From a virus (lineage: Duplodnaviria > Heunggongvirae > Uroviricota > Caudoviricetes), in the IMG/VR virus record IMGVR_UViG_2617270948_000001, positions 1-12,692 of that record: DNA of 12,692 nt; one strand, written 5' to 3'. Below are positions 1-12,677 of the stretch, piece by piece. The position numbers were made by a program, and so were the translations under genes. The notes beneath the pieces were generated by a model that saw nothing but the letters and a program-made list of their open reading frames with translations, had not been told where the DNA came from and did no database searches. Numbering within the stretch: position 1 is the first letter of the stretch; each line of letters begins with the position of its first letter.

Positions 1-47
1 CATTCGTAATGCGAAGGTCGTAGGTTCGACTCCTATTATCGGCACCA
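1..47 (+). tRNA. thrW: 3' portion of a tRNA-Thr(CGU) gene (anticodon loop TTCGTAA, T-arm GGTTCGACTCC, acceptor 3' strand, terminal CCA at 45-47); window starts inside the gene; probable prophage attachment site
   Basis: Matches the canonical tRNA 3' half: T-loop GTTCGA, acceptor strand TATCGGC complementary to a GCCGATA 5' end, encoded CCA. A P22-type integrase is convergent 14 bp downstream. Identification as thrW is from memory of that tRNA and of P22 integrating there. Confidence 0.7.
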
Positions 48-61
48 TTAAAATCAATAAG

Positions 62-1225
62 TTACACATCATTAGTACCTTCCTTATTTTTTGACTGGGA
101 CAAATTTGGGACCGATGGGTTCAGGATCGAGTCTATTTGCCGTGCGTGTTCGGTAAGGTGATTAGGTGCAAGGTGAGCATATCGACGAACCATTTCGATA
201 GACTCCCAGCCTCCCATTTCCTGTAACACTGACAACGGGACTCCGGCTTGAACCAGCCAACTTGCCCAGGTGTGTCTCAAGTCGTGAAATCTGAAATCAT
301 CAATACCAGCCCGTCTCAGCGCCGCTTTCCAGGCTGTGTTTGCGTCATACCGCATCTTCCTTACTGTTGGCGCTTTCGTTCCGTCTGGTTTGGTACAGCT
401 TTCCTTGTACACAAATACCCAACGGTGATGATTCCCGATTTGTTTTTTCAATACGCGACATGCAGTATCATTCAGCGCAACGCCAATTGCGCGGTTTGAT
501 TTACTCTCTTCCGGGTTTATCCATGCCACCCGGCGCTGCATATCTATTTGTTGCCATTCAAGGTTGATGATGTTCGAGCGTCTTAAGCCTGTTGCCAGTG
601 CAAATTCAACAACAGACTTTAATGGCTCCGGACATTCATCAATCAGCCTTTGTGCTTCATGGGGCTCCAGCCAGCGGATCCGTTTATTCTTTGGTTGAGG
701 CACTTTAATAATTGGTGCCTTATCCAGCATTTTCCATTCACGCTCTGCGGCTCTTAGTAGGGCCTTTATAAATGAAAGATGCGTAGCCTTCGTTGCAACG
801 GACGCTGGTTTTGGCGTGTATTCTGGAACAGGTTTCCCTTTTTTTCTGCATGCTTCTGCCCTGAGTTTCCAGTTTTCCTCATGACGCCGGTTCGTCATTT
901 TCTGCATTGCTGAATAAATTTTTGATTCAGTAATGTCTCTTAGTTGCATTCCTGCGAAATGTTGAAGCCAGAATCCGATCCGGCTTTTGTCATCGTCCAG
1001 TGATTTTTTATGTGCTTTCTCTTCAAGCCACCTGACACAAGCTTCCTCGAACGTTATATCAGGTATTTCACCAAGTTTGCTGACCCGCCATGCTTCAGCC
1101 TTTAGCTTGTCATGGAGTTCTGTCGCCTGCCTTTTGTCCTTTGTTCCAAGAGACTGTTTAAATCTTTTACCGTTCGGCAATGTGAAACTGGCGTACCATA
1201 TTTCACCTCTGCGGAAGAGTGACAT
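62..1225 (-). CDS. int: Tyrosine recombinase / phage integrase, P22-Int type (387 aa)
   Basis: ATG at 1225 preceded by GAGGA; TAA at 62-64. Protein begins [22 protein letters not shown] as recalled for P22 Int. C-terminal catalytic signature HDLRHTWAS ... VRRYAHL (HxxR and Tyr nucleophile). Adjacent to tRNA 3' end. Confidence 0.93.
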
Positions 1226-5434: not shown

Positions 5435-5561
5435 TGTTGGTTATTTTAGAAATAACTGGTTGTATTTAGGATGGATTTATTTTGTGACTTGCATCGCATA
5501 GCGATAACTGAAGCGAGGTTGTGGTGGTTTTTTGAACGGTGTGTGTGATGAGGGGAGGGGC

Positions 5562-5597
5562 AAAAGAAAACCCGGCACGGTGGCCGGGTTGTTTTTA
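5562..5597. terminator. Strong bidirectional intrinsic terminator (8-bp stem AACCCGGC/GCCGGGTT, loop acggtg, flanked by A-run and T-run)
   Basis: aaaagaaaaCCCGGCacggtgGCCGGGttgttttta; T-tract on either strand. Lies immediately 3' of the 316-aa minus-strand gene (stop at 5595-5597), ending the cI-cassette transcript before the PL region. Confidence 0.75.
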
Positions 5598-6545
5598 TAG
5601 CTCATTGTAAACAGCAATAGGCTCAATGAAATACTCATCAGAGTCAGGGGCGCAAAATGTTGACTCCAGATCAAAAAGGCTGTCATTCATATTCCAGACT
5701 GCACTGCGAATGCCGTTTAGTTCACGAGCCTCTGATTCCTGATTACCTTCAGACGTTGATGTACGCGTTATTATCCCTACGACTGTGAATGCAGAGGTCG
5801 TTCGACGAGAATATAACTTTACAAACATTTCTGGACTGATTTTAAGAAAATCTCTGATTAAGAATGAGGTGAATTTAATATCTTGCATTTTTTGTGATAT
5901 TTCTATTTCGTCACCATATGCGTAATCTAAAACAGAAGACAAATGCTCAAAGAATTTTTTCTGATTTGGAGATGTTAAATTATCAAGCTCACTTTTAATT
6001 TCTGCTTGTCTTGCCTTGATAATATTAAATTCATTGGATTTGGGTTTTATCGATTTCAGCATCGATTCTAGACTTTCTAATTCGTCATTTCGATGAACGA
6101 AATTAATAGCATAGTTAGTTTTACAGAAATTCTTAGCGGTATTTTTTAATTTATTATAGTCATTAAATTGAATTGGGCAGGTGATTTTAACAAAGCAATT
6201 AGCCTTAATTTTGTTCGAGTCGATCGGGGAAGTTATGTTAGACAGAATTCCTCTTTTGCTAAGTTCGTTTTCAAATTTCAGATAATGATAATCATGAGGG
6301 TTTAACACTGTTGATATTTTTTTTGTGTCACTCGTTTTACTTGAACTACTTTTTGTCTTTATTTCGACCGCATCTATATTTGAAAGAGTAGACTCTTTAT
6401 GCTCCATCGCGGATTGAATTACGCCCTCAAATAATTGAGAGCTTAAAGAGTAGACCTTCTCATAATCAATATAAATGATATTTTTTAACTGCATACCAAT
6501 TCCATTAGTGATATTTAAGTTGTTCTTTCTTTCTTTCAAAGTCAT
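5595..6545 (-). CDS. Hypothetical soluble protein (316 aa; possibly 299 aa from internal ATG at 6494), AT-rich cargo, no recognised family
   Basis: Long open frame in strongly AT-rich DNA unlike the flanking phage genes. Last gene of a three-ORF cassette co-oriented with cI. No Walker or other motif recognised by eye. Confidence 0.6.
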   Translation of the reverse strand: MTLKERKNNLNITNGIGMQLKNIIYIDYEKVYSLSSQLFEGVIQSAMEHKESTLSNIDAVEIKTKSSSSKTSDTKKISTVLNPHDYHYLKFENELSKRGILSNITSPIDSNKIKANCFVKITCPIQFNDYNKLKNTAKNFCKTNYAINFVHRNDELESLESMLKSIKPKSNEFNIIKARQAEIKSELDNLTSPNQKKFFEHLSSVLDYAYGDEIEISQKMQDIKFTSFLIRDFLKISPEMFVKLYSRRTTSAFTVVGIITRTSTSEGNQESEARELNGIRSAVWNMNDSLFDLESTFCAPDSDEYFIEPIAVYNEL

Positions 6546-6681
6546 CGCTATTTGACTTTCTGACCCTTTCTATGTGCATTAAAGTTTCCTGTGCATTTTT
6601 GAGGTTTTTTCTTGAAAACCATGCCAATACAGCAGGTATCACAACAGCTATTATGGATAAAATAGTAATTAAGTACTCCAT
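6505..6681 (-). CDS. Unlisted small membrane peptide (58 aa, MEYLITILSIIAVVIPAVLAWFSRKNLKNAQETLMHIERVRKSNSDDFERKKEQLKYH), single N-terminal TM helix
   Basis: ATG at 6679-6681 lies 3 nt after the TAA of the upstream 138-aa gene, whose last codons (CAG GAG TAA) supply an AGGAG Shine-Dalgarno. 3' end overlaps the 316-aa ORF start by 41 nt in another frame. Below the ORF-track cutoff. Confidence 0.45.
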   Translation of the reverse strand: MEYLITILSIIAVVIPAVLAWFSRKNLKNAQETLMHIERVRKSNSDDFERKKEQLKYH

Positions 6682-6684
6682 AAT

Positions 6685-7101
6685 TTACTCCTGCGCCACT
6701 ACTTTGTTATTGATAATAGCACACCTGACTGAATTTTGTCCAATGTATAAGGATATACCACAAGTAATAGCGACTAATATGCGAGTCGTATTCATGTTAA
6801 GGATGTTATCAGCCAGCATAACAATAATGTAAATTATAGAAAAAAGTACAATGAAAACAATCGATATGGTAGTGTTTATAATAATATTGTTTTCAGTTTG
6901 CTTGCTGGGTTGGCCCATTCCGTAATAAATACTGGATATTTGTATGGCAAAGCCAAAACATATCAACTCAGTTATATTGATCAGCTCTATGTTTTTATTA
7001 GTGATGAAATAAGCAATAAATCTAATAAAGATAGGGATTGCTCCAATGATTACTGTTCCGCACCACCACTTGAAATAATCACTATGAATATTATGTTGCA
7101 T
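6685..7101 (-). CDS. Hypothetical integral membrane protein (138 aa, about four predicted TM helices), first gene after cI
   Basis: Hydrophobic segments WWCGTVIIGAIPIFIRFIAYFI, ELICFGFAIQISSIYYG, ISIVFIVLFSIIYIIVMLA, ILVAITCGISLYIG. ATG at 7101, 49 bp downstream of the cI stop. AT-rich. Size and topology resemble RexB but no sequence similarity is claimed. Confidence 0.6.
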   Translation of the reverse strand: MQHNIHSDYFKWWCGTVIIGAIPIFIRFIAYFITNKNIELINITELICFGFAIQISSIYYGMGQPSKQTENNIIINTTISIVFIVLFSIIYIIVMLADNILNMNTTRILVAITCGISLYIGQNSVRCAIINNKVVAQE

Positions 7102-7931: not shown

Positions 7932-7943
7932 ATGGAGGTTGTT

Positions 7944-8174
7944 ATGAACCCAGCTATCAAAACAGCGATCAATATCGTTGGTTCACAAAAGAAACTGGGC
8001 GCTGCTTGCGAAGTTTCACAGCAGGCCGTCTATAAGTGGCTTCACAACAAAGCAAAGGTATCCCCTGAACATGTCGGCAGCATTGTTACGGCTACTGGTG
8101 GAGTAGTGAAGGCATACCAGATTCGCCCGGATCTTCCGAAGTTGTTTCCACACACCGAAAAGAACGCAGCTTAA
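7944..8174 (+). CDS. Cro-like small HTH regulator, DicC/YdaS-like (76 aa from ATG at 7944; the listed ORF begins at an upstream ATG at 7932)
   Basis: GGAGG at 7934-7938 sits 5 nt before the ATG at 7944. Sequence SQKKLGAACEVSQQAVYKWL is a DicC/YdaS-type HTH. Divergent from the repressor across the operator region. Confidence 0.7.
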   Translation: MNPAIKTAINIVGSQKKLGAACEVSQQAVYKWLHNKAKVSPEHVGSIVTATGGVVKAYQIRPDLPKLFPHTEKNAA

Positions 8175-8243: not shown

Positions 8244-8783
8244 ATGCAACCACTTACATACCAACAGACTAGCGGATTTAGCCCGACTGCGGTGATAAAT
8301 CGTTCTCAAACAAAACAGGTGCCAGGCCACGAAAAAATCCGTGATGCCGTCCGCGCCTGGTCGGCTGTAGATAATCAGGATGTCGTTGCCACACTCATTG
8401 TGAATGAGTATCGGGAGCAGGGCGGCGGCACCATCGATTTCCCTGATGATGTCAGCCGTGCACGCCAGAAGCTGTTCCGCTTCCTCGATAACAAATTCGA
8501 TTCTGAAAAATACCGAAATAACGTGCGTGAACTGACCCCGGCAATTCTGGCTGTACTACCGCTGGAATATCGCGGCCACCTGGTTGAGCAGGATAGCTTC
8601 ATGGCTAGGCTGGCTGAAATGGAAAAGGAACTCAGTGAGGCAAAACAGGCTGTCATTCTCAACGCACCACGCCACCAGAAACTGAAGGAGATGAGTGAAG
8701 GCATTGTGTCGATGTTTCGAGTGGACCCGGATCTGGCAGGTCCATTGATGGCGATGGTCACCACCATGCTGGGGGCAATATGA
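8244..8783 (+). CDS. YdaT-like protein at the cII position (179 aa)
   Basis: AGGAG 7 nt upstream of ATG at 8244. Segments NEYREQGGG and LTPAILAVLPLEYRGHL resemble recalled Rac YdaT (EEYLRQGGG, LIPAILAILPRELRHRL). Follows a YdaS/DicC-like cro as in Rac-type immunity regions. No similarity to lambda CII. Confidence 0.5.
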   Translation: MQPLTYQQTSGFSPTAVINRSQTKQVPGHEKIRDAVRAWSAVDNQDVVATLIVNEYREQGGGTIDFPDDVSRARQKLFRFLDNKFDSEKYRNNVRELTPAILAVLPLEYRGHLVEQDSFMARLAEMEKELSEAKQAVILNAPRHQKLKEMSEGIVSMFRVDPDLAGPLMAMVTTMLGAI

Positions 8784-8869
8784 CATGTTCAGAAATGGCG
8801 AAAGCCGGTCTGCTGGAACAGAACCGACTTTCAGGTGCAAATCGTAACGCACTCATTGCGGGAGGAATT

Positions 8870-9799
8870 ATGGCAAACACTGCTGAGATATTCAATTTTC
8901 CAGTGCCGGATGCGGCACAAAAGGAGCCGCGCGTGGCAGATCTCGATGATGGTTATACGCGCATTGCAAATGAGTTGCTGGAAGCTGTGATGCTGGCCGG
9001 ATTAACACAGCACCAGCTTCTGGTCTTCCTGGCTGTCATGCGCAAAACATATGGCTTTAATAAAAAACTGGATTGGGTGAGCAACGAGCAACTTTCCGAG
9101 TTGACCGGGATATTGCCGCACAAGTGTTCTGCTGCAAAAAGTGTTCTGGTAAAGCGTGGGATTTTTATTCAGAGCGGGCGGAATATAGGCATTAATAATG
9201 TGGTCAGTGAATGGTCAACATTACCCGAATCAGGTAAGAAAAATAAAGTTTACCTGAAAGAGGTAAATTTACCTGAATCAGGTAAGAAAAGTTTACCCAA
9301 ATCAGGTAAAGGCACTTACCCGAATCAGGTAAACACAAAAGACAAACTAACAAAAGACAATATAAAACCTTATTCGTCCGAGAATTCTGGCGAATCCTCT
9401 GACCAGCCAGAAAACGATCTTCCTGTGGTGAAACCGGATGCTGCAATTCAGAGCGGCAGCAAGTGGGGGACAGCAGAAGACCTGACCGCCGCAGAGTGGA
9501 TGTTTGACATGGTGAAGACCATCGCGCCATCAGCCAGAAAACCGAATTTTGCAGGGTGGGCTAACGATATCCGCCTGATGCGTGAACGTGACGGACGTAA
9601 CCACCGCGATATGTGTGTACTGTTCCGCTGGGCATGCCAGGACAACTTCTGGTCCGGTAACGTGCTAAGTCCGGCCAAACTCCGCGACAAGTGGACCCAA
9701 CTCGAAATCAACCGTAACAAGCAACAGGCAGGCGTGACAGCTAGCAAACCAAAACTCGACCTGACAAACACAGACTGGATTTACGGGGTGGATCTATGA
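8870..9799 (+). CDS. O: Replication initiator O (lambda O family, 309 aa from ATG at 8870; listed ORF start at 8780 is probably an upstream in-frame extension)
   Basis: GGAGG 4 nt before ATG at 8870. MANTAEIFNF ... ADLDDGYTRIANELLEA ... RKTYGFNK parallels lambda O N-terminus (MTNTAKILNF ... ADLDDGYARLSN ... RKTYGWNK). Iterons lie inside the gene. Stop overlaps P start (ATGA). Confidence 0.9.
   Translation: MANTAEIFNFPVPDAAQKEPRVADLDDGYTRIANELLEAVMLAGLTQHQLLVFLAVMRKTYGFNKKLDWVSNEQLSELTGILPHKCSAAKSVLVKRGIFIQSGRNIGINNVVSEWSTLPESGKKNKVYLKEVNLPESGKKSLPKSGKGTYPNQVNTKDKLTKDNIKPYSSENSGESSDQPENDLPVVKPDAAIQSGSKWGTAEDLTAAEWMFDMVKTIAPSARKPNFAGWANDIRLMRERDGRNHRDMCVLFRWACQDNFWSGNVLSPAKLRDKWTQLEINRNKQQAGVTASKPKLDLTNTDWIYGVDL
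9221..9333. repeat. Replication origin iterons: five copies (one degenerate) of an 18-bp dyad TTACC(C/T)(G/A)AATCAGGTAA(G/A), followed by an AT-rich stretch at 9334-9370
   Basis: Copies at 9221-9238, 9249-9265 (degenerate), 9269-9286, 9293-9310, 9316-9333, spaced about 20-28 bp, then cacaaaagacaaactaacaaaagacaatataaaacc. Inside the O gene, as in ori-lambda. Encodes repeated PESGKK in the O linker. Confidence 0.75.
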
Positions 9800-10497
9800 A
9801 AAACATCGCCGCACAGATGATTAACTTTGACCGTGAGCAGATGCGTCGGATCGCCAACAACATGCCGGAACAGTACGACGAAAAGCCGCAGGTACAGCAG
9901 GTAGCGCAGATCATCAATGGTGTGTTCAGCCAGTTACTGGCAACTTTCCCGGCGAGCCTGGCTAACCGGGACCAGAACGAACTGAACGAAATCCGCCGCC
10001 AGTGGGTTCTGGCTTTCCGGGAAAACGGGATCACCACGATGGAACAGGTTAACGCAGGAATGCGCGTAGCCCGTCGGCAGAATCGACCATTCCTGCCATC
10101 ACCCGGGCAGTTTGTTGCCTGGTGCCGGGAAGAAGCATCCGTTACCGCCGGGCTGCCAAACGCCAGCGAGCTGGTTGATATGGTTTACGAGTATTGCCGG
10201 AAACGTGGCCTGTATCCGGATGCAGAGTCTTATCCGTGGAAATCAAACGCGCACTACTGGCTGGTTACCAACCTGTATCAGAACATGCGGGCCAATGCGC
10301 TGACTGATGCGGAATTACGGCGCAAGGCTGCCGATGAACTGGCCTGTATGACAGCGCGAATTAACCGTGGTGAGGCGATACCTGAACCAGTAAAACAACT
10401 TCCTGTCATGGGCGGGAGACCGCTTAATCGTGTTCAGGCTCTGGCGAAGATCGCAGAAATCAAAGCGAAGTTTGGGCTGAAAGGAGCAAGTGTATGA
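9796..10497 (+). CDS. P: Replication protein P (lambda P, DnaB helicase loader, 233 aa)
   Basis: Essentially identical to lambda P as recalled (MKNIAAQMINFDREQMRRIANNMPEQYDEKPQVQQVAQIINGVFSQLLATFPASLANRDQNE ... KFGLKGASV). Confidence 0.96.
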   Translation: MKNIAAQMINFDREQMRRIANNMPEQYDEKPQVQQVAQIINGVFSQLLATFPASLANRDQNELNEIRRQWVLAFRENGITTMEQVNAGMRVARRQNRPFLPSPGQFVAWCREEASVTAGLPNASELVDMVYEYCRKRGLYPDAESYPWKSNAHYWLVTNLYQNMRANALTDAELRRKAADELACMTARINRGEAIPEPVKQLPVMGGRPLNRVQALAKIAEIKAKFGLKGASV

Positions 10498-10813: not shown

Positions 10814-11308
10814 ATGAGAAAATTTATTTTAGCCTTTGTTATAAGTGCCTCGTTTACAGCAAATGCTGGTGTAGAGAAGTTAGGGCCGTGGATAACAAAG
10901 TCTGAGATAAATAAAATGACTGATCAGACTGACTTTGTGGCTCTTAATTTATCACCAGATTCATATAACAAAGCAGGTACTGATCGTGCAACTTCACTGG
11001 TGTTGCGTTGTAGTGATAACAAAACAGATGTCTATTTATCATTCAATGATTATATGGGTTCGGACAACCCAAGAATTACAGTACGGTTAGATGGCGGAAA
11101 GCCGGTCAAGAGTGTTTGGGGAGGTGGGGAAGGCGGTGATTCTGCATTTGCTCCACAACCAATACAATTTATAAAGACCTTGGCTAAGCATAAAAAAGCT
11201 ATTTTTGGGTTTGAACCTTATGGATCAACTATGCAAGTAGTTGAGTTTGACTTGTCTGAGATTGATAAGGTTGTGGAAAAAATTTCACAGTCTTGCAATT
11301 GGAAATAA
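10814..11308 (+). CDS. Hypothetical secreted/periplasmic protein (164 aa) with Sec signal peptide; AT-rich cargo
   Basis: AGGAG 8 nt before ATG. N-terminus MRKFILAFVISASFTANA-GVE has a positive n-region, hydrophobic core and an A-x-A cleavage site. Two Cys (C66, C162) could form a disulfide. No family recognised. Confidence 0.6.
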   Translation: MRKFILAFVISASFTANAGVEKLGPWITKSEINKMTDQTDFVALNLSPDSYNKAGTDRATSLVLRCSDNKTDVYLSFNDYMGSDNPRITVRLDGGKPVKSVWGGGEGGDSAFAPQPIQFIKTLAKHKKAIFGFEPYGSTMQVVEFDLSEIDKVVEKISQSCNWK

Positions 11309-11704: not shown

Positions 11705-12109
11705 ATGACAACGAAAATAAGCAAAGATGATAAACATCTGCTTGATCCTTATTTAAAATGGCTTGCAAACAAGAAGCTAATGGTTGCCTTCTGGTTGGTG
11801 CTAATGATATGTGGTTGCATATATGCATATATAGAAAATGATTGGTCACTTCTTCCCCGATTCGGATGTTTAGGCATAATGATTGGCACATTGCTTACTC
11901 TTTCTCCGCTTTTTGCAGAAGGTATCTACCTGTCAAGGCGAGAAGCATTTAGTTTTGGTTCGGTACAACAAGATGGGAGCGTCACCTCAACCTCTGAAAA
12001 AGGTCGTGCAGTATCAAGGAATATTCTATGGGGTGTTATCATTATAATCATATCATCGATAATAAATGCATTTGGTGACTTAATAATGGTCACGATTATG
12101 AATGGTTAA
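11705..12109 (+). CDS. Hypothetical small membrane protein (134 aa from ATG at 11705; the listed ORF start at 11687 is a TTG), about three TM helices
   Basis: AGAGG 4 nt before ATG. Hydrophobic segments LMVAFWLVLMICGCIYAYI, LGIMIGTLLTLSPLF, ILWGVIIIIISSIINAFGDLIMVTI. AT-rich. No family recognised. Confidence 0.5.
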   Translation: MTTKISKDDKHLLDPYLKWLANKKLMVAFWLVLMICGCIYAYIENDWSLLPRFGCLGIMIGTLLTLSPLFAEGIYLSRREAFSFGSVQQDGSVTSTSEKGRAVSRNILWGVIIIIISSIINAFGDLIMVTIMNG

Positions 12110-12365
12110 AATAATTAATATTTATGATATTAGTATTATATAACTTAGTATGCTGTTTAATTAAGTCACCGCAGACTTGACACTTGGCGGTAACTTCTGC
12201 GCTAAACGGTGACGTTTATACGCACATACAATCTAAATCCTCTTCTCCCTCCACAGATGCAGAAATATACCTGCGATTTTTTGCATTCGGTGTGTAGTGG
12301 CATAGTGAATTTGGCCACCTGAATAGAGGTGATATCATCACCTCATAGTCAAAACAGGTGACATT

Positions 12366-12677
<312 letters not shown>

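Follow-up and report, generated by a model that had tools for sequence, protein, structure and literature searches.

Among the origins that resemble the locus described here, that of phage lambda is known in most detail. Dimers of the initiator O bind the iterons to form the O-some, an AT-rich tract opens and the C-terminal part of O brings P and DnaB (PMC7466680, PMC3349717). The four iterons to which lambda O binds are situated midway along its own gene, and members of the family vary by origin specificity (PMC8022706; PMC7466680; PMC3349717). The origin, ori-lambda, spans lambda 39034-39160 inside gene O and consists of ITN1-4 followed by a 38-bp AT-rich region; in the lambda record the four iterons are annotated at 39034-39118, inside O. 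Stx phages 933W and P27 carry six lambda-type iterons in O; only four of these are bound strongly, and the extra ones matter for plasmid establishment (PMC7466680). In P22, a rep_origin is annotated inside gene 18 (BK000583), with four iterons at a spacing of 20/24/23. Gene 15 of phi80 has four annotated gp15 binding sites.

Plasmid origins offer a more distant comparison. Those served by the Rep proteins of pPS10, F, R6K and RK2 have a direct array of initiator sites adjoining an AT-rich unwinding element, and their initiators are winged-helix proteins. Plasmid iterons are usually asymmetric, bound by monomers and located outside the rep gene. The sites described below differ from these in being palindromic and embedded in the coding sequence of their own initiator. 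This initiator belongs to Phage_rep_O according to Pfam, and plasmid Rep proteins form another family.

Here, we analyse an array of repeats in the O gene of a lambdoid prophage. The window, that is, the whole stretch of DNA under study, comprises 12,692 nucleotides of IMG/VR record IMGVR_UViG_2617270948_000001. We give a probability of about 0.87 to the reading that positions 9221-9370 are the replication origin of this prophage, built like ori-lambda. That O binds there and that the origin fires is what we infer by analogy with lambda.

The O-P region and its repeat array

The window covers the left-hand portion of a lambdoid prophage, including a chromosomal prophage end (Table 1). The integrase gene is followed, in order, by methyltransferase, exo, bet and gam genes. 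A CI-like repressor is encoded on the minus strand. Unlike in lambda, the positions of cro and cII are occupied by YdaS-like and YdaT-like genes. Given the transposase fragment, the prophage may be defective.

Table 1. Positions of the main features in the window
Feature	Coordinates	Strand	Remarks
3' tRNA fragment	1-44		
Integrase	62-1225		
pO-like promoter, TTGAAT-17 nt-CATAAT	8867-8895	-	Consensus scan; overlaps the O start codon
O-type replication initiator gene	8870-9799	+	309 aa; Pfam Phage_rep_O 7.5e-34, aa 21-115
O N-terminal DNA-binding domain, coding region	8930-9214	+	aa 21-115; Pfam; predicted winged helix
Predicted recognition helix PHKCSAAKSVLVK	9116-9154	+	aa 83-95; H83-95 in the model
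Extra upstream iteron TTACCCGAATCAGGTAA	9221-9237	+	29 bp ahead of the core array
Core iteron 1 TTACCTGAAAGAGGTAA	9250-9266	+	Most divergent copy; position of lambda ITN1
Core iteron 2 TTACCTGAATCAGGTAA	9269-9285	+	Perfect palindrome, central A
Core iteron 3 TTACCCAAATCAGGTAA	9293-9309	+	Pattern match
Core iteron 4 TTACCCGAATCAGGTAA	9316-9332	+	Pattern match
A-rich tract ACACAAAAGACAAACTAACAAAAGACAATATAAAACCT	9333-9370	+	38 bp; presumed DNA-unwinding element
Imperfect palindrome around GAATTC	9371-9398	+	Common to lambda; directly right of the A-rich tract
O C-terminal domain, coding region	9371-9796	+	Lambda type
P gene, helicase loader	9796-10497	+	Pfam Phage_lambda_P 9.5e-62
Transposase fragment	12366-12677		

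The open frame of O reaches upstream to an ATG at 8780. The start used in Table 1 is equivalent to the ATG chosen by PGAP for an identical gene, and a GGAGG is found 6 nt upstream of it. Over its full length, the window O is 68% identical to lambda O. Its N-terminal domain shows 47.2% identity with those of lambda-type phages (tblastn). The linker that holds the repeats is unalignable with lambda O. From YSSENSGESS onward, the C-terminal half (aa 168-309) is identical to lambda O except at one residue (P/S). This domain presumably interacts with P. The ATG of P overlaps the stop codon of O (ATGA), and the protein shares 227 of its 233 residues with lambda P (97%), bearing out the original prediction that P is essentially that of lambda. 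In megablast searches with the O gene, full-length matches come from only about 15 phage records, including PhiR34_1, 4A7, Lambda_4C10, Perceval and Turner. For more than 100 lambda, 434, 21 and Stx phages, the match begins at query positions 541-554, equivalent to window 9320-9333. In lambda-type phages it therefore starts at the last iteron or the A-rich tract.

At the beginning of O, the pO-like promoter has the same position as lambda pO (TTGAGT-17-CATAAT) and nearly the same hexamers; the -10 element of lambda pO is at lambda 38684-38688 (PMC3349717). We saw no convincing oop-like terminator downstream of the pO-like promoter, and an Rfam search detected no RNA family at the origin or in its vicinity.

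The motif TTACCYRAAWSAGGTAA has exactly five matches without mismatch on the plus strand of the 12.7-kb window, all of them in the O gene. By chance, 0.02 matches are expected, and none of 200 dinucleotide-preserving shuffles contained as many as observed. The looser pattern TTACC-N7-GGTAA retrieves the identical five sites. Their start-to-start distances are 29, 19, 24 and 23. As judged from the matches of the pattern on the minus strand, all units are near-perfect palindromes; that at 9269-9285 is fully symmetrical about its central A (TTACCTGA-A-TCAGGTAA). Five direct repeats of a dyad had been proposed, and their number and symmetry stand; the conserved core measures 17 bp, or 18-19 with a flanking T/A, where 18 bp had been given. 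The iterons begin at codon 118, and the lambda-identical C-terminal domain at about codon 168, so that the array sits between the N-terminal Phage_rep_O domain (aa 21-115) and the C-terminal domain. When compared with the spacing in lambda and P22, the last four repeats (19/24/23) correspond to ITN1-4, which makes the copy at 9221 an extra one. On this evidence, the array is best described as a core of four iterons preceded by an additional copy.

The region resembles ori-lambda in several respects. Both occupy the middle of O, immediately behind the SEW motif with which the N-terminal domain closes. Their iterons are palindromes of 17-18 bp, with a core spacing of 19/24/23 in the window versus 20/24/23 in lambda. 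An A-rich, strand-biased tract follows the last iteron, and the GAATTC palindrome, the O C-terminal domain and P are nearly identical. An architecture like that of ori-lambda had been predicted, and we indeed find iterons and an AT-rich tract inside a Phage_rep_O gene that aligns with lambda O throughout. Differences are seen in the iterons and in the part of O expected to read them. The window has TTACC-N7-GGTAA where lambda has TCCCTC-N5-GAGGGA, also as predicted, and it has five copies instead of four. The start of the predicted recognition helix is LPHK..S in the window versus PVKR..V/L in lambda. As in 933W and P27, extra iterons have been added to a core of four inside O, lengthening the O linker; the window has one extra copy of another sequence type, whereas these Stx phages have two extra copies of the lambda type.

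P22 provides the closest classical N-terminal domain, with 64.6% identity to that of the window. Its iterons have the same half-sites, TTACC/GGTAA, and the same ACACAAAAGACAATATACAAAAGACAAT tract follows the array. However, the half-sites are 5-6 bp apart in P22 (TTACCAGATCGGTAA) and 7 bp apart in the window, and the recognition helix starts with APTK..N in P22 instead of LPHK..S. A further difference lies in the C-terminal domain of gp18, and gp18 is paired with a DnaB-type helicase (gene 12), not with lambda P. Because their spacer is 7 bp rather than 5-6 bp, the window iterons are a sister class to the P22 gene-18 class and do not belong to it. The iteron was said to be distinct. It is distinct from that of lambda but not unique, since it has the half-sites of P22 with a longer spacer.

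The A-rich tract was expected to be 37 bp long; it is present after the repeats, with a length of 38 bp. It is 74% A+T and strand-biased, with 24 A versus 4 T, and its lambda counterpart is 76% A+T with 25 A versus 4 T. The tract opens with ACACAAAAGACA in the window, lambda and P22 alike, and it is kept across genera. Within the O-P region, the two 38-mers of lowest stability are this tract and the segment between iterons 1 and 3. The tract is not the least stable DNA of the window, since AT-rich islands at about 12106 and about 7102 are less stable. Its assignment as the presumed unwinding element is therefore based on position and on homology to lambda. The adjoining GAATTC palindrome, TTATTCGTC[C/A]GAGAATTCTGGCGAATCC, has one mismatch to lambda, and near-identity to lambda starts at 9371.

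Iteron type and the O N-terminal domain

About 35 O homologues, taken from one-genome-per-species contigs and phage records, were typed by the array that follows their SEW motif. In every O homologue type sampled, the array comes right after this conserved motif, and a spacing of about 20/24/23 is also found in all other iteron types sampled. The type of iteron follows the similarity of the N-terminal domain, not that of the C-terminal domain or of P. At loci with TTACC-N7-GGTAA, the N-terminal domain is 64-100% identical to that of the window. Identity is 55-60% at loci with TTAGC-N7-GCTAA (SEN34, Siccibacter, Scandinavium and others), 45-49% with the TCCCTC-N5-GAGGGA of lambda, and about 40-46% with other types (Aeromonas loci and phi80). 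The 7-bp spacer is present in 5/5 copies of the window and in 12/12 cross-genus relatives. This covariation of iteron type and N-terminal domain across about 35 loci argues for an O with a DNA-binding specificity different from that of lambda, in agreement with the original prediction.

Two phages illustrate how the parts separate. Klebsiella phage 6 LV-2017 has an N-terminal domain, five iterons and a spacing as in the window, but its C-terminal domain is different and the partner is of the DnaC type. Conversely, SEN34 has a lambda-type C-terminal domain and P (79% each) with a different N-terminal domain and TTAGC iterons. Such a two-way separation is what a modular O model predicts. On the best explanation, the N-terminal domain is inherited together with the iterons as one specificity cassette. 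A second cassette, derived here from a lambda-type phage, would consist of the A-rich tract, the O C-terminal domain and P.

The number of copies varies among relatives. The extra upstream iteron is present at the Escherichia, Klebsiella, Enterobacter and Pseudocitrobacter loci. Those of Xenorhabdus, Pantoea and Providencia have the four core iterons and lack the extra copy, and Arsenophonus and Sodalis have 7-10 iterons.

An O homologue of Enterobacter sichuanensis has the conserved N-terminal domain with a T5orf172 domain inserted where the array is expected. No iterons were found in this homologue. Thus, the N-terminal domain can exist without an internal array.

To place the differences between types on a structure, we used an AlphaFold2 model of residues 1-125. 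The homologue search gave mostly truncated O proteins and served only as the alignment for this prediction. The model contains the elements H28-42, H47-63, E67-69, H72-79, H83-95, E99-102 and E105-108, arranged as in a winged helix with a beta hairpin at 99-108. Its mean pLDDT is 75, reaching about 90 over residues 41-110. A Foldseek search of the PDB gave no match at E <= 0.001. Its best hits, which are weak (E 5e-3), were the winged-helix DNA-binding domains from CRP/FNR and MarR proteins; members of these groups bind palindromes as dimers. By sequence, the complete O protein matched no solved structure in the PDB.

In a gapless 100-residue alignment of N-terminal domains, we selected columns that are invariant within a type and share no residue between types. 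These columns cluster at 42-57 and 78-91, the strongest being 82-85 and 91, where nothing is common to the TTACC, TTAGC and lambda types. The residues at 82-85 and 91 are LPHK .. S in the TTACC-N7 type, H(H/Y)TH .. N in the TTAGC-N7 type, P(V/I/E)KR .. V/L in the lambda type and APTK .. N in P22. In the model, the discriminating residues are predicted to lie at the start of the recognition helix and inside it.

Alternative readings of the repeats

The repeat region is translated, and it encodes a Lys/Ser/Gly/Pro-rich sequence of linker-like character. The repeats could accordingly be a tandem peptide repeat in the flexible O linker, kept for protein reasons and with no role as DNA sites. Copies 1, 3 and 4, which are in phase 0, do encode similar peptides (LPESGK, LPESGK and LPKSGK). 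However, copies 2 and 5 are in phase 2 and read VYLKEVN and TYPNQVN, so that the peptide is not shared by two of the five. Two reading frames without a common peptide indicate that the repeat is kept as DNA. Moreover, none of the spacings 29, 19 and 23 is divisible by three, and each unit is a DNA palindrome. Conservation points the same way. We compared loci from Klebsiella, Enterobacter, Pseudocitrobacter, Xenorhabdus, Pantoea and Providencia, each with the window; Klebsiella sp. WOUb02 was excluded from the N-domain comparison as its alignment was out of register. The four core iterons (68 nt) are 91-97% identical to those of the window. This is far above the third codon positions of the N-terminal domain at the same loci (38-57%) and above the inter-iteron spacers (60-87%), the N-domain DNA as a whole being 65-79% identical. 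An alignment scan of viral contigs gave only relatives at 97-100% and served as a sample of close homologues. Among these IMG/VR relatives, 79/80 keep five copies at identical spacing, and 69/80 have an array identical to that of the window. The single exception has lost one 24-bp unit in frame. The original prediction had held that loss of the repeats in close homologues with a conserved O would speak against it; what we observe is retention of all five in every relative but one. Selection is shown to act on the repeats at the DNA level. We rejected the peptide-repeat reading, which is hardly credible with copies in two frames.

Selection on DNA sites leaves the nature of the bound factor to be considered. 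Palindromic 17-mers are typical of operator sites, and a promoter-like match lies just upstream of the array (9211-9182, minus strand). The repeats might thus serve regulation instead of origin recognition, and the factor bound in place of O could be, for example, the prophage repressor, one of the YdaS/YdaT-like regulators or a protein of the host. But the motif is found nowhere else in the window or in phage 4A7, operator region included; in the deposited 49-kb genome of the latter it occurs only at the 5 sites in O. Promoter-like hits are no more frequent than in shuffled sequence. When genera are compared, the O N-terminal domain alone accompanies the iterons, whereas YdaT-like genes, P and the lambda-type C-terminal domain are missing from most loci with the same iterons. 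Thus, among 12 non-Escherichia loci with TTACC-N7-GGTAA, a lambda-type C-terminal domain is present at 2, a P-like gene at 3 and a YdaT-like gene at 1. Sites for a foreign regulator are very improbable and were rejected, the repeats being linked only to the O N-terminal domain. A third possibility concerns the present state of the locus, which could be a true O-type origin by descent that has become an inactive relic in a decaying prophage. The window does include a chromosomal prophage end with its tRNA fragment and integrase, and it carries the transposase fragment. Copies that have decayed are also known elsewhere, as in E. coli DETEC-E1070, where O is frameshifted after loss of one 23-bp unit. 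In the window, however, the O and P reading frames are intact, the array is identical to that of phage 4A7 and of the 69 relatives mentioned above, and the A-rich tract is the second most common variant among the IMG/VR relatives. We therefore consider a relic unlikely and retain the reading of the region as a replication origin of the ori-lambda type.

Proposed mechanism, distribution and possible specificity classes

In the mechanism that we propose for this origin, dimers of the O N-terminal winged-helix domain would bind the 17-bp palindromic iterons TTACC-N7-GGTAA. Their targets would be the four core sites at lambda-like spacing and the one extra site upstream. Bound O would then form an O-some, distort the DNA and open the A-rich tract at 9333-9370. 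The next step, recruitment of the lambda-like P carrying the host DnaB helicase, would fall to the lambda-identical C-terminal domain. It is from the lambda paradigm that we infer these steps, from the binding of O through unwinding to the arrival of P and DnaB. The extra fifth iteron might tune O-some assembly, by analogy with the extra iterons of Stx phages.

The module is abundant. Of 5426 complete E. coli genomes, 2453 (45%) carry the N-terminal domain and iterons (8870-9370), nearly all at an identity of at least 95%, and the annotation there is merely 'replication protein'. The module is also present in deposited phage genomes. In the searchable literature, we found no paper describing a TTACC-N7-GGTAA iteron or origin and no binding or replication experiment on such iterons; a full-text search with the iteron core GAATCAGGTAA returned unrelated primers only. 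The architecture is that of the textbook, yet this class of iteron and O specificity, although very common, has apparently not been described.

The iterons TTACC-N7-GGTAA, the TTACC-N5/6-GGTAA of P22 and the SEN34-like TTAGC-N7-GCTAA differ by one base per half-site or by the spacing of the half-sites. We tentatively suggest, at somewhat less than even odds, that they represent three related specificity classes that do not cross-react with one another. These would be tracked by only 4-5 residues at the start of the recognition helix (LPHK..S, APTK..N and HHTH..N). If the classes do not cross-react in vivo, the O initiator family would have a simple recognition code, and these three types would be a minimal natural series for working it out. 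It would also account for the presence of several lambdoid prophages with near-identical P in one E. coli strain without cross-talk between their origins. The view of how lambda-type origins work is unchanged. The iteron classes may be of use for annotating prophage origins and for designing mutually non-interfering replicons. They may likewise help to predict cross-activation or initiator titration among co-resident lambdoid prophages.

Gene content on either side of the O and P genes

A tyrosine integrase gene is adjacent to the 3’ portion of a tRNA gene; therefore, the window begins at a prophage attachment site within a tRNA gene (table). A prophage of E. coli FDAARGOS_144, whose O N-terminal domain and iterons are 100% identical to those of the window, is integrated at icd.

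The AT-rich island that adjoins the repressor gene stands at the position occupied by rexAB in lambda, and is possibly a moron or defence cargo. Like the Rac prophage, the window carries YdaS- and YdaT-like genes in place of cro and cII, respectively. The YdaT-like gene is labelled “cII” in several phage records. Downstream of P, the presence of a VasI-like gene, a very A+T-rich stretch and a transposase fragment suggests replacement or disruption of the nin region.

Features of the window and of two related O loci (L002, L009)
Feature	Coordinates	Strand	Remarks
tRNA gene, 3’ part	window 1-44		Rfam, 29.7 bits
Tyrosine integrase	window 62-1225		adjoins tRNA 3’ part
AT-rich island	window 5477-7101	-	adjoins repressor gene
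DUF6414 protein	window 5595-6545	-	Pfam 3e-18; within AT-rich island
Orphan, 138 aa	window 6685-7101	-	no family match; within AT-rich island
YdaS-like gene	window 7932-8174		cro position; Pfam 4.8e-17
YdaT-like gene	window 8244-8783		cII position; Pfam 7.2e-30
Promoter-like site, TTGAAT-17 nt-CATAAT	window 8867-8895	-	overlaps O start codon
VasI-like protein	window 10814-11308		downstream of P; Pfam 1e-6
95% A+T stretch	window 12106-12143		downstream of P
Transposase fragment	window 12366-12677		downstream of P; reaches window end
Mosaic O gene	L002:301-1322		Escherichia phage D2, OM475427
O homologue with T5orf172 domain	L009:1501-2622		Enterobacter sichuanensis NZ_POVL01000015

Start of the O gene

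In several phage records, O starts at an upstream ATG (window 8780; 339 aa), whereas PGAP places the start at 8870 (309 aa). The latter ATG aligns with Met1 of lambda O and is preceded by GGAGG 6 nt upstream. The 339-aa annotation is thus probably over-extended. The promoter-like site overlapping this start codon coincides in position with pO, the promoter of oop in lambda, and differs little from it in its hexamers. Because no convincing terminator was found 70-90 nt downstream, an oop-like antisense RNA transcribed from this site is proposed only as a possibility.

Variation of O and of its iterons

O genes with 48-49% identity to the query, a value equal to that of lambda O, were retrieved from assemblies (L023-L037) of organisms including Bradyrhizobium, Shewanella, Neobacillus, Oceanobacillus, Ruminococcus and Leeuwenhoekiella. 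Several are carried by contigs of about 48 kb, with coverage near 1x for some, and the iterons of L025, the one locus of this set that was checked, are exactly those of lambda. Contamination of the assemblies by lambda DNA is the most likely explanation.

In the O gene of phage D2, window-type sequence gives way to that of lambda midway through the N-terminal domain; the gene has iterons of the lambda type and is split into two CDS in the annotation. Either natural recombination accompanied by a frameshift or an assembly chimera accounts for this structure.

The number of iteron copies also differs among loci (L061:1047-1135; L016:1912-2069; L017:1837-2089; one of the 80 close IMG/VR relatives, L063-L142), reaching 7-8 in Arsenophonus and about 10 in Sodalis. 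One contig among these IMG/VR relatives has lost a 24-bp unit in frame. In E. coli DETEC-E1070, loss of one 23-bp unit causes a frameshift in O; the remnant of a prophage that contains this gene has IS elements on both sides.

In the Enterobacter sichuanensis homologue (N-terminal domain identity, 73%), a T5orf172 domain (Pfam PF10544, 7e-8) occupies exactly the position at which the iteron array would be expected. No iterons of the TTACC, TTAGC or lambda types were found in the 3.3 kb fetched for this locus. The A-rich coding tract, “TKDKHTKDN”, is retained, and the recognition-helix segment is similar to that of P22.
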